A stretch of 64,000 nucleotides of DNA, from assembly GCF_003334765.1 (NCBI RefSeq), contig NZ_QOWT01000002.1, one strand, 5' to 3'. Both the position numbers and the translations under genes were made by a program. Under the pieces are notes generated by a model. The model saw nothing but the letters and a program-made list of their open reading frames with translations. It did not search any database and was not told where the DNA came from. This document shows positions 56,971 to 60,983 of this stretch, piece after piece (within the stretch, counting starts at the first letter, position 1; every line of letters starts with the position of its first letter). Origin of the DNA: Escherichia coli. GTDB lineage: Bacteria; Pseudomonadota; Gammaproteobacteria; Enterobacterales; Enterobacteriaceae.

Positions 56971-57753
56971 TCAGTCACCGTAGACATTAAAGTCGAAATA
57001 CTTTTTCGCCATCTTGTCGTAGGTGCCGTCCTGACGCAGCTCGCCAAGCGCCTTATTGAAGGCAGCCGTCAGTTCAGCATCATCTTTACGTAGCCCTACA
57101 CCGGTGCCATCACCGAAGTATTTTTTGTCTTTTACTGATGAGCCAGCAAAGGCGAAATCTTTACCAGCAGGTTGCTTGAGGAATCCTTCGCTGGCAGCAA
57201 CTTCATCTTGTAACGCAGCATCCAGACGTCCTGCAGCCAGATCGGAATAGACCAAATCCTGGTTGGCATAGGCCACCACATCCACGCCTTTACTACGCCA
57301 GGTCTCGTTAGCGTAAGCTTCCTGGGTTGATCCCTGCAGCACACCAACATGTTTACCTTTCAGTGAATCCAGCGTTGGCTGAATCGGTGAACCTTTGGCC
57401 GCAATCAAACGAGAATCTGCGGCGTACAGCTTGTCGGAGAAGGCAATCTCCTGCTGACGTTTATCGGTAATGGAAAGCGACGAAATAATAGCGTCGATTT
57501 TTTTCGCTTTCAGTGAGGGGATCAGCGCGTCAAAGTCACTGGCAACCCAGGTACATTTCACCTGCATCCGTTTGCACATCTCGTTACCGAGATCGATATC
57601 AAAGCCAACAAAATCACCTTTAGCATCTTTCGATGAGAACGGTGCGTAGGTGGTATCGGTTCCGATACGTACCGTCTCCGGTAGCGCCGCATAGCTGGAA
57701 GCCGCTGTGGAGAGACCGACTAACAAAGACAGAGCGAGAATCGACTTCTTCAT
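56971..57753 (-). CDS. argT: ArgT, periplasmic lysine/arginine/ornithine-binding protein
   Basis: 260-aa ORF with signal peptide; about 70% identical to HisJ by eye. Confidence 0.95.
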
Positions 57754-57821
57754 ACATAACCCTCAAGTGAAAATGGCTTTTTTATGTTGTGTATTGTGTT
57801 GTGTGTTTGCAGGCTCTTTCA

Positions 57822-57837
57822 TGCAGGTCTTATGCCA
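57822..57837 (-). promoter_or_regulatory. Candidate sigma-54 (-24/-12) promoter of argT
   Basis: Minus strand reads TGGCATAAGACCTGCA (GG-N10-GC spacing of the TGGCAC-N5-TTGCA consensus), about 70 bp upstream of the argT ATG. Confidence 0.6.
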
Positions 57838-57987
57838 TCTTGACGACAACAGTAACATTCAACGTTAAATATGTTAATAAGACGTTGCATTATTGTCCTG
57901 AAGTTGAAGATAGCAGGTATAGCGGTTGAATCGCAGCGTTTCGATTGAATGGCAGAAACAAAATGTCGAGGATTTGATCGCGGTTGC

Positions 57988-58010
57988 AAAATTGCCCTGA
58001 AACAGGGCAA
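57988..58010 (-). terminator. Hairpin downstream of ubiX (candidate terminator of cvpA-purF-ubiX)
   Basis: TTGCCCTG-AAA-CAGGGCAA stem followed on the minus strand by UUUUGCAA, 9 nt after the ubiX stop. Confidence 0.55.
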
Positions 58011-58018
58011 CAGCGGAG

Positions 58019-58588
58019 TTATGCGCCCTGCCAGCGGGCAAAGAGATCTTCAGGAAGGGTTATCGCAAACTGGTCAAGAACACGATTAACCGTCTGATTT
58101 ATCACATCATCAAGGGATTGCGGGCGATGATAAAACGCCGGAACGGGAGGCATAATCACCGCACCGATTTCTGCCGCCTGAGTCATTAAACGCAGATGGC
58201 CTAAGTGCAATGGTGTTTCACGCACGCAGAGCACCAACGGGCGACGCTCTTTCAGCACCACATCTGCCGCACGGGTCAGTAAGCCATCAGTATAGCTATG
58301 GACAATGCCGGAAAGGGTTTTGATTGAACAGGGTAAAATCACCATCCCCAGCGTCTGGAAAGAACCGGAAGAGATGCTGGCGGCAATATCGCGCGCATCG
58401 TGCGTGACATCGGCTAATGCCTGCACTTCGCGCAGAGAAAAATCCGTTTCGAGGGATAAGGTCTGGCGCGCTGCCTGGCTCATCACCAGATGCGTTTCGA
58501 TATCTGTGACATCGCGCAGAACCTGTAATAAGCGCACGCCATAAATCGCGCCGCTGGCACCGCTGATGCCTACAATGAGTCGTTTCAT
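58019..58588 (-). CDS. ubiX: UbiX, flavin prenyltransferase
   Basis: 189-aa flavoprotein-fold ORF starting MKRLIVGISGASGA; last gene of the cvpA-purF-ubiX unit. Confidence 0.95.
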   Translation of the reverse strand: MKRLIVGISGASGAIYGVRLLQVLRDVTDIETHLVMSQAARQTLSLETDFSLREVQALADVTHDARDIAASISSGSFQTLGMVILPCSIKTLSGIVHSYTDGLLTRAADVVLKERRPLVLCVRETPLHLGHLRLMTQAAEIGAVIMPPVPAFYHRPQSLDDVINQTVNRVLDQFAITLPEDLFARWQGA

Positions 58589-58682
58589 AAATAGTTGCCC
58601 TGTCAGACTTGCAGGCAGACTTTGCAGGATTTCGGCGGGAGTTGCAAGTCAGGGTGCCAGACCGGCACCCTCAGCGAAGGCA

Positions 58683-60200
58683 TCATCCTTCGTTATGCAT
58701 TTCGAGATTTTCCACTTCGTTCTGACGTTGCACTGCTTTGGCGTCATCATTACGTAACGTATCGAGGAAATCGAGGTAGCCCTGATCAACATCTTTGGTG
58801 ACGTAGACGCCGTTGAACACCGAGCATTCAAACTGCTGGATATCCGGATTTTCAGCGCGAACGGCGTCGATCAGATCGTTCAGATCCTGGAAAATCAACC
58901 CGTCAGCACCGATGATCTGGCGAATTTCATCAACTTCGCGACCGTGAGCGATCAGTTCCGTGGCGCTCGGCATATCAATACCATAAACGTTCGGGAAGCG
59001 AATTTCCGGTGCCGCAGAAGCGAGGTACACTTTCTTCGCTCCGGCTTCGCGTGCCATCTCGATAATCTGCTCAGAAGTGGTGCCACGGACGATGGAGTCG
59101 TCGACCAGCAGGACGTTTTTATCGCGGAACTCGGCGCGGTTGGCATTCAGTTTACGGCGCACGGACTTACGACGCAGCTGCTGGCCCGGCATGATAAAGG
59201 TGCGGCCAACATAGCGGTTTTTAACGAAGCCCTGGCGGTACGGTTTGCCCAGAATACGAGCAATTTCCAGCGCGATATCACACGAGGTTTCTGGGATCGG
59301 GATCACCACGTCGATATCCAGATCTTCCCATTCGCGGGCAATTTTCTCGCCCAGTTTCGTGCCCATATTCACACGCGCGCTGTAAACGGAAATTTTGTCG
59401 ATAAACGAGTCCGGGCGGGCAAAGTATACATACTCAAACAGGCACGGATTGCTGACCGGATTGTCAGCACATTGACGGGTAAACAACTGCCCTTCTTCAG
59501 TGATGTAAATCGCTTCGCCCGGCGCGACGTCACGCAGGAAATCAAAGCCCAGCGTATCGAGCGCTACGCTTTCGGAAGCGACCATATATTCTGTACGGTT
59601 CTCGTCAATATCACGTTTTCCCAGTACCAGCGGACGAATCCCGTTTGGATCGCGGAAAGCAACCATACCGTGGCCGATAATCATCGCCACACAGGCATAC
59701 GCGCCGCGGATTAAGCGGTTTGTGGCAGCAATGGCAGCGAAAATATTGTCGGCTTCCAGCGGGTAGTGGCGGAAGTTGTCCAGCTCGCTGGCGAAGATAT
59801 TAAGCAGAATTTCCGAGTCGGAAGTGGTGTTGATGTGGCGGCGTTTTTCTTCAAACAGTTTTTTACGCAACTCGTGAGCGTTGGTCAGATTGCCGTTGTG
59901 GGCAAGCGTAATGCCATACGGGGAGTTAACGTAAAACGGCTGCGCTTCAGAGGCGCTGGAGCTGCCAGCCGTGGGGTAACGCACATGACCAATGCCCATA
60001 TTGCCCTGCAAACGCTGCATATGGCGAGCTTCAAATACATCGCTCACCAGCCCGTTCGCTTTACGCAAACGGAAGCAGTTATTGGCATCTATGGTGATGA
60101 TGCCGGCGGCATCCTGACCGCGATGCTGAAGCACCGTTAAGGCATCATAAATCGACTGGTTAACCGGCATAACACCGGCGATACCGACAATACCGCACAT
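58683..60200 (-). CDS. purF: PurF, amidophosphoribosyltransferase
   Basis: 505-aa ORF with N-terminal catalytic Cys (MCGIVGI) and PRPP-binding motif [13 protein letters not shown]. Confidence 0.97.
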
Positions 60201-60236
60201 ACGTCTTTTTCCTCGTTAAGCCACATCTCAGAGCAC

Positions 60237-60725
60237 TTACGCTCTGGGCAAGAAACTTGACGAGCTTTGCAGATAATCAAAAAACCATCTGATGATAAAA
60301 CTGAATTGCGGGATCAGCTGTGATTTGCTCCAGTCTTCGCTTTTCGACACCCCGGTAAAGGAGTCGAGAAAGAAGAGAATGGCAGCAACAATCAACACAC
60401 CGCGCAACGCACCGAAACAGACGCCCAGCACCCGATCGGTGCCTGACAACCCCGTTTTCTCCACCAACTGGCCTATCACGAAGTTCACGATAGCACCAAC
60501 GATCAGGGTAGCGATAAACAGTACCGCGATGGCAATCCCATTTCGAACCAGTTCGTCTTCAAAGCCCGTAAACCAGACTGACAGGTAAGTGTAGTAATGA
60601 CTGGCAACAAAGAAAGCACAACCCCATGTCACCAGCGATAACGCTTCACGAACAAAGCCGCGGATCAGGCTAACCAGAGAGGAAAAAGCAATCACCGCGA
60701 TTATGGCGTAATCAATCCAGACCAT
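60237..60725 (-). CDS. cvpA: CvpA, colicin V production membrane protein
   Basis: 162-aa membrane protein; PurR operator about 60 bp upstream. Confidence 0.94.
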   Translation of the reverse strand: MVWIDYAIIAVIAFSSLVSLIRGFVREALSLVTWGCAFFVASHYYTYLSVWFTGFEDELVRNGIAIAVLFIATLIVGAIVNFVIGQLVEKTGLSGTDRVLGVCFGALRGVLIVAAILFFLDSFTGVSKSEDWSKSQLIPQFSFIIRWFFDYLQSSSSFLPRA

Positions 60726-60781
60726 ATGTGTCCCACGATTTTACGCCCTGTCATCCTGTTCGGGGCGCATTCTAACAGAAA

Positions 60782-60797
60782 AAGAAAACGTTTGCGT
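60782..60797 (-). promoter_or_regulatory. PurR operator (pur box) in the cvpA-purF-ubiX promoter
   Basis: Minus strand reads ACGCAAACGTTTTCTT, a perfect match to the 16-bp PurR box, about 57-72 bp upstream of the cvpA start. Confidence 0.85.
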
Positions 60798-60890
60798 AGG
60801 GATTTCCTTCCCGCGCATCAATAAAAATGGCGCTGAAAAAATATTCAACGCCATCGACTTTTTATGCCTTTGCGGCATCGGGCAATGCGT

Positions 60891-60974
60891 GTCGGATGCG
60901 GCGTAAACGCCTTATCCGACCTACGGTTCTACCCCTGCGTAGGCCTGATAAGACGCGCCAGCGTCGCATCAGGC
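60891..60974. repeat. BIME (two inverted REP elements) between cvpA and dedD
   Basis: GTCGGATGCGGCGTAAACGCCTTATCCGACCTACG followed by GTAGGCCTGATAAGACGCGCCAGCGTCGCATCAGGC. Confidence 0.8.
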
Positions 60975-60983
60975 AAGACCGTA

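Follow-up and report, generated by a model that had tools for sequence, protein, structure and literature searches.

A predicted internal ubiX promoter, conserved in Enterobacteriaceae, adjoins the 3′-end hairpin of purF in the cvpA-purF-ubiX operon

The spacer between purF and ubiX in Escherichia coli most probably (with a probability of roughly 0.7) carries an internal promoter for ubiX, predicted to be weak and of the sigma-70 type, which adjoins a hairpin at the 3′ end of purF and would allow a basal, PurR-independent expression of ubiX. According to this reading, a fraction of the cvpA-purF transcripts would end at the hairpin (H1) or be trimmed to it, and the promoter located immediately downstream of H1 (TTGCAA, 17 bp, CAAAGT) would start RNA at the G of position 58612. 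The ubiX mRNA made from this base would have a leader of 24 nt, and the basal supply of ubiX would be independent of the PurR-repressed promoter of cvpA. The junction is of an ordinary and known kind for an operon. In the literature searched, it is not described in this way, though both RNA ends are found in published supplementary tables.

The window, that is, the whole stretch of 64,000 nt that was analysed, contains on its minus strand cvpA (60237-60725), purF (58683-60200, an ORF of 505 aa), and ubiX (58019-58588), as determined by the ORF list and the RefSeq annotation. UbiX is a flavin prenyltransferase required in ubiquinone synthesis, and the PurR site of the operon is located upstream of cvpA. 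The spacer of 94 bp (58589-58682) is bordered by the TGA stop codon of purF (58683..58685) and the ATG start codon of ubiX (58586..58588) and has no RefSeq annotation of its own. A likely Shine-Dalgarno sequence of ubiX, AGGG (58598..58601, minus strand), is placed 9 nt 5′ of the ATG, within a G-rich block that is retained in the alignment. Since the genes and the transcript lie on the minus strand, the motifs of the sequence-only reading, which were given on the plus strand, are the reverse complements of the functional reading.

The segment 58000-60800 has a match in all 5426 complete E. coli genomes and differs from K-12 MG1655 in one of 2801 bases. The spacer sequence is that of K-12 with no differences and corresponds to U00096.3 2428627-2428720 (K-12 coordinate = window coordinate + 2370038). 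The spacer region is single-copy in each of the 5426 genomes, without length variants. Rfam covariance models, scanned over 57500-61500 at E values up to 10, matched no family within 58589-58682.

The comparative set was obtained by a genome scan with UbiX, which gave 80 listed loci, all from Enterobacteriaceae; in 70 of them, purF is directly upstream of ubiX. With the window included, 71 spacers from about 25 genera were aligned. The protein search for relatives outside the Enterobacteriaceae gave close relatives only. The length of the spacer is 88-102 nt in most loci and 117-143 nt in Klebsiella, Raoultella, Siccibacter, and one Franconibacter-type genome. The alignment consists of three zones: a hairpin 3′ of the purF stop codon, a block of 36 nt free of indels, and a variable leader with a G-rich Shine-Dalgarno sequence ahead of the ubiX start codon.

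The block (58613..58648, minus strand; positions -36 to -1 in the anchored matrix of the 71 spacers) reads TTGCAA-17 nt-CAAAGT in E. coli. The pattern TTGCNN-N17-CANNGT is matched in 71/71 spacers; indels are absent between the hexamers and abundant in the flanks. In detail, the -35 hexamer (TTGCAA, 58642..58647) has an invariant TTGC in all 71 spacers (TTGCAA in 61, TTGCGT in seven, TTGCAT in three). The -10 hexamer (CAAAGT, 58619..58624), which follows 17 bp after the -35 hexamer, is invariant in the C, A, G, and T of its positions 1, 2, 5, and 6 (CAAAGT in 48 spacers, CACAGT in 20, CATTGT in three). Thus, A-11 and T-7 never change, while -10 and -9 vary. The information content is high across -36 to -1 and then drops to 0.06 bit at +1.

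The conserved block ends exactly where a published transcript begins. In the data set of Kim et al. (2012, PMC3415461), 5′ ends were sequenced after terminator-exonuclease enrichment for triphosphates, and only ends found in both replicates were kept. A 5′ end at NC_000913.2 2426672(-), assigned to ubiX with an untranslated region of 24 nt, is included with eight reads, compared with a mean of 108 for the data set. This end corresponds to the G at 58612 on the minus strand, the first position past the block, and is taken here, from this single data set, as the transcription start of ubiX. It lies 7 nt past the -10 hexamer (5-8 nt is the sigma-70 criterion). With the start mapped to 58612, CAAAGT occupies -12 to -7 and TTGCAA occupies -35 to -30. 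The sequence-only reading had offered a separate promoter for ubiX as one option, and the published start, together with the persistence of the block where another gene precedes ubiX (see below), argues for it. The supplements of Yan 2018 and Cho 2014 have no ubiX entry, and the Salmonella supplement of Ramachandran 2012 has no entry either.

The match to the sigma-70 consensus is partial. TTGCAA shares four of six bases with TTGACA and CAAAGT three of six with TATAAT, a total of 7/12; the 17-bp spacing, found in 71/71 spacers, falls inside the sigma-70 range of 16-18 bp. A consensus promoter scan of the window did not call the ubiX site, and the bare hexamer pattern occurs in the window at chance frequency. 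The weight matrix built from the block finds a single site in the window with a score of 53.6, the runner-up scoring 1.3. The discriminator is GC-rich. Several bases outside the consensus are invariant across the approximately 25 genera, namely C-32, A-19 to C-15, G-13, C-12, G-8, C-6, G-4, and C-3, and of these a plain sigma-70 promoter leaves C-32, G-13, C-12, and G-8 unexplained.

The association of the block with ubiX is also evident where the gene order changes. In 10 of the 80 listed loci, purF is not directly upstream of ubiX. Six of them (L021, L024, L027, L052, L055, and L076) keep the block about 29-30 nt upstream of ubiX in the form TTG(C/T)NN-N17-CANNGT, with the variant TTGTCT in L027, and lack the purF hairpin. 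Three others (L044, L048, and L068) have only a diverged block, and L072 has none. Upstream ORFs were listed for one of the ten loci, that of Klebsiella oxytoca (L052, 514-2459), where genes for a ROK-family kinase and a LacI-family regulator have replaced purF directly upstream of ubiX. The reading frame of this regulator enters the block, and its stop codon lies inside the spacer of the ubiX promoter. The upstream sequences of L055 and L076 contain the C-terminus of a similar regulator. The persistence of the block without the hairpin under other upstream genes assigns the block to ubiX and the hairpin to purF. The locus L072 (1-240) of Salmonella enterica subsp. arizonae contains a UbiX-like gene, with 90% identity to UbiX of E. 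coli, in another context; purF, hairpin, and promoter block are all absent upstream of it. A purF-linked Salmonella locus is absent among the 80 listed loci.

H1 (58651..58671, minus strand) is a GC-rich stem-loop, AGGGUGCC-GGUCU-GGCACCCU, without a U-tract; it was recognised as an inverted repeat and is present in both the minimum-free-energy and the centroid folds. It begins 11 nt past the purF stop codon and has a loop of 5 nt. The sequence-only reading had described a stem of 7 bp (GGGTGCC/GGCACCC); the stem is there, but its real length is 8 bp, with AGGGTGCC (58651-58658) pairing with GGCACCCT (58664-58671) through six G-C pairs. On the sense strand, the tail of H1 is GACUUGCAAC, with two U in the first 8 nt, that is, no U-tract, and the terminator scan of the E. 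coli window did not call H1. In E. coli, the segment from the stop codon to TTG, which holds the hairpin, has a folding energy of -16.5 kcal/mol (z = -2.2). For the orthologous segments, the mean is -21.7 kcal/mol and the mean z is -3.8, with z < -2 in 65 of the 71.

A hairpin 3′ of the purF stop codon is found in 71/71 spacers, with stem sequences that are unrelated between lineages and arms that are sometimes swapped; the zone directly after the stop codon is unalignable between genera. Within the group of Escherichia, Citrobacter, and Enterobacter, the outer pairs are compensatory (UA 15 / CG 11 at one pair, GC 12 / AU 8 / CG 5 at another). In Enterobacter and Citrobacter, the 3′ arm of the purF hairpin extends into the -35 hexamer. 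In Klebsiella and Raoultella (L038, L043, L053, L065, L066, L073, and L080), as well as in L023, a hairpin followed by a T-run lies between purF and the block, and the terminator scan calls the hairpin of L053. A canonical hairpin with a T-run is similarly present at the orthologous position of Franconibacter. Because the hairpin and T-run separate purF from the block, ubiX would need a promoter of its own in Klebsiella, Raoultella, and L023. Judged from the alignment, the block is the sole conserved candidate for a ubiX promoter in the genomes where a full terminator follows purF.

An RNA 3′ end was mapped by Term-seq at U00096.3 2428685(-) and is classified as "primary" for purF in two condition lists (Adams et al. 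2021, PMC7815308). It corresponds to 58647 on the minus strand, 4 nt past the stem of H1, where the -35 hexamer has its first T. Term-seq cannot tell termination from trimming. For a large part of the cvpA-purF transcripts, H1 could set or protect the 3′ end, either as a weak terminator without a U-tract or as a barrier to 3′-to-5′ exonucleases; if it is a terminator, the E. coli hairpin is a leaky one at best. The earlier statement that the hairpin is not a terminator goes beyond what can be established, considering this 3′ end in vivo and the orthologues of Klebsiella, Raoultella, and Franconibacter with hairpin and T-run. The suggestion of an element for RNA processing or stability is plausible for the hairpin, with its Term-seq end 4 nt downstream; the repeat region fits the other option, a promoter.

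A second 5′ end of the same strand, at 58696 (NC_000913.2 2426756(-), 10 reads), is located in the last codons of purF (Kim et al. 2012, PMC3415461), with no good -10 hexamer at a suitable distance. Should this end and the 3′ end at 58647 come from one molecule, they would bound an RNA of about 50 nt consisting of a hairpin CGAAGG/CCUUCG over the purF stop codon (58675-58692) and H1.

The mapped ends have to be weighed against an interpretation based on RNA alone. An obligatorily polycistronic mRNA would be cut between the U at 58613 and the G at 58612, the downstream product carrying the mapped 5′ end; shortening of the upstream product as far as the hairpin would leave the 3′ end at 58647, and the block would serve in RNA recognition or structure instead of as a promoter. 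One cut would account for both mapped ends, and the low read count of the 5′ end and the lack of a U-tract after H1 are in line with it, as is the predicted fold, in which the -35 and -10 regions pair as RNA (ACUUGCA with UGCAAAGU). However, the 5′ end resisted terminator exonuclease in two replicates, and since the conservation halts at +1, the stable downstream RNA would hold no conserved sequence at all. The strict spacing of 17 nt, with invariance limited to TTG and A-11/T-7 of the hexamers, is the geometry of a promoter, and the block is retained under a different upstream gene and behind a strong terminator. The stem between the -35 and -10 regions was rejected as unsupported, its core being invariant and hence without covariation, and the bases beside it varying without compensation. 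Processing as the only source of the ubiX 5′ end is therefore considered improbable. A second proposal at the RNA level, likewise improbable although compatible with a promoter, is that a hairpin between the discriminator and the Shine-Dalgarno sequence (GCCUG/CAGGGC, ~58597-58616) masks the ribosome-binding site of ubiX. The masking would be restricted to read-through RNA because the 5′ arm of this hairpin lies upstream of the start site, and ubiX would be translated mainly from the promoter-derived mRNA. GCCC(U) can pair with AGGGC in most orthologues, and cognate arms pair at -8.44 kcal/mol versus -7.78 kcal/mol for non-cognate arms, a value reached in 8 of 2000 permutations. On the other hand, the effect is small, and both relatedness and the G-richness of the Shine-Dalgarno sequence confound it; in several divergent lineages, the lineage's own arm pairs no better than the majority arm, and part of the Klebsiella/Raoultella lineage (L038, L043, and L080) folds an alternative hairpin that leaves the ribosome-binding site free.

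The remaining alternatives accept a promoter and differ in its control. In one of them, an operator for some regulator overlaps the promoter, or a sigma factor other than the housekeeping one recognises it, so that ubiX would be specifically regulated rather than constitutively expressed at a basal level. The invariance of bases outside the consensus over -36 to -1 and the GC-rich discriminator speak for such control; no palindrome of the operator type is present, and the matrix of the block stays silent upstream of the other ubi genes examined (ubiE/J/B, ubiD, ubiCA, ubiG, and ubiHI), by which a shared motif of a "ubi regulon" was also rejected. Other sigma factors fit poorly. In Escherichia only, the 3′ arm of H1 and the -35 hexamer together read TGGCAC-N6-TTGCA (58643-58659, minus strand), which is a near-perfect sigma-54 consensus apart from one extra base. 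A sigma-54 promoter was discarded, as TGGCAC (58654-58659) and TTGCA (58643-58647) are one base beyond the 12-position spacing of GG and GC, genera other than Escherichia lack the GG element, and genomic SELEX lists no RpoN peak for the spacer. The sigmaE-like GCAACT...TCTG has its two parts 3-4 bases too far apart, and the comparison by eye with the consensus sequences of sigmaE, sigma-32, sigma-28, the PurR box, and the CpxR box gave spacings or half-sites that either misfit or are not conserved. A dedicated regulator or an alternative sigma factor is accordingly regarded as quite improbable. Likewise unlikely, the block from -36 to -1 may be a composite promoter-operator for some regulator, or may act as a buffer, with the internal promoter occluded when transcription from the PurR-controlled one reads through. 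This possibility arises because the non-consensus bases are invariant and the arm of the Enterobacter and Citrobacter hairpin reaches the -35 hexamer. If buffering were true, the output of UbiX, that is, prenyl-FMN, would be constant at any purine status.

The repeats, GTTGCAAG, and the GC stem without a U-tail are all present in the 94 bp as had been described from the sequence. On the plus strand, CAGACTTGCAGG at 58604-58615 adjoins CAGACTTTGCAGG at 58616-58628, forming a tandem repeat of 12/13 nt over 58604-58628 (Tandem Repeats Finder: period 13, 2.0 copies, score 43), and GTTGCAAG is located at 58641-58648. What had been counted as a third repeat is simply the -35 hexamer. In addition, GACTTGCA (58606-58613) and TGCAAGTC (58643-58650) form an exact inverted repeat, which the sequence-only reading had missed. 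Of 1500 sequences made by shuffling the mononucleotides of the spacer, six had an equally good tandem repeat, and just three matches with a Tandem Repeats Finder score of at least 40 exist across the 64-kb window.

On the sense strand, copy 1 (CCTGCAAAGTCTG, 58616..58628) coincides with the end of the promoter spacer, the -10 hexamer, and the discriminator, and copy 2 (CCTGCAAGTCTG, 58604..58615) with positions -3 to +9, that is, the start site and the early leader. The long form of copy 2 is restricted to Escherichia. Other genera read GCCC(T/A)GAA.. there with unchanged length and retain the promoter block without the long tandem repeat; for instance, the nearest Citrobacter sequences, of the same length, read ...AAGTCAGCCCAGAAGTCAGA... 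This equality of length shows that the long repeat was born of point changes on a shorter and older repeat rather than by duplication. This distribution does not support the tandem repeat itself as the functional unit, and the repetition per se is probably a lineage-specific by-product.

No variation in the copy number of the repeat was found over a region of 201 nt: 5425 of the 5426 E. coli genomes have at least 95% identity, and none falls in the band of 90-95%, where an indel of 12-13 nt in such a region would be placed. A variable-number tandem repeat was thus rejected. The sole E. coli genome with less than 95% identity is that of strain B27 (L082, NZ_AP027424.1), with numerous small indels from the -10 hexamer into ubiX, which is unannotated there; this looks like an assembly error or a decayed gene.

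The junction can be compared with known systems. Sigma-70 promoters within operons, for instance, the internal promoter p2 of the trp operon in E. coli, provide a low constitutive expression of the distal genes. Common to trp p2 and the ubiX promoter is a weak promoter in a regulated operon, ahead of a distal gene that is needed apart from the main control, here PurR. The start of ubiX is mapped, and the geometry of -35, 17 bp, and -10 is canonical. In contrast to trp p2, the ubiX promoter is intergenic and not in a coding region, it directly abuts a 3′-end hairpin, and its block is kept base-for-base throughout the family over -36 to -1, non-consensus positions included.

REP hairpins between malE and malF are intercistronic stem-loops which fix or stabilise the 3′ terminus of the mRNA segment preceding them. 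Similarly, H1 is a GC-rich hairpin without a U-tract that follows the upstream gene, the one in greater demand, and has an RNA 3′ end at its base, but it is a single hairpin of lineage-specific sequence and not a REP element. A REP or BIME element was rejected for the spacer, in which no Rfam naRNA4/REP match was found at E values up to 10 and which occupies one place per genome in the 5426 genomes. With intrinsic terminators, H1 shares the stable GC-rich hairpin soon after a stop codon and a 3′ end nearby; unlike them, the E. coli tail GACUUGCAAC has no U-tract, which is found only in the orthologues of Klebsiella, Raoultella, and L023.

The cvpA-purF-ubiX unit of the textbooks is refined by these data, as ubiX apparently has a promoter of its own, conserved family-wide, and many of the purF transcripts appear to stop before ubiX. 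This would explain how an enzyme of ubiquinone synthesis stays expressed under purine repression of the operon. In the Enterobacteriaceae, the splitting of the operon is seen at several stages, that is, a hairpin without a U-tract, a full terminator, and inserted genes. The results may be of use for the annotation of transcription units (of the RegulonDB/EcoCyc type) and for the engineering of prenyl-FMN supply, and no concept is changed by them.

Some further sites were recorded in the neighborhood. Between dedD and cvpA, upstream of the promoter region of cvpA, three overlapping matches to Rfam naRNA4 (REP-like) occur at 60865-61010; they are below threshold, with 35-38 bits against a gathering score of 59.5. 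On the other side of the junction, a very strong "orphan" 3′ end, 2427825(-), is located in the argT leader (window ~57787), just past the sigma-54-type TGGCATAAGACCTGCA (Adams et al. 2021, PMC7815308). The same study includes 3′ ends internal to the genes of the operon, in purF at 2429969/70 (window 59931-59932, minus strand) and in cvpA at 2430294 and 2430606 (window 60256 and 60568, minus strand).
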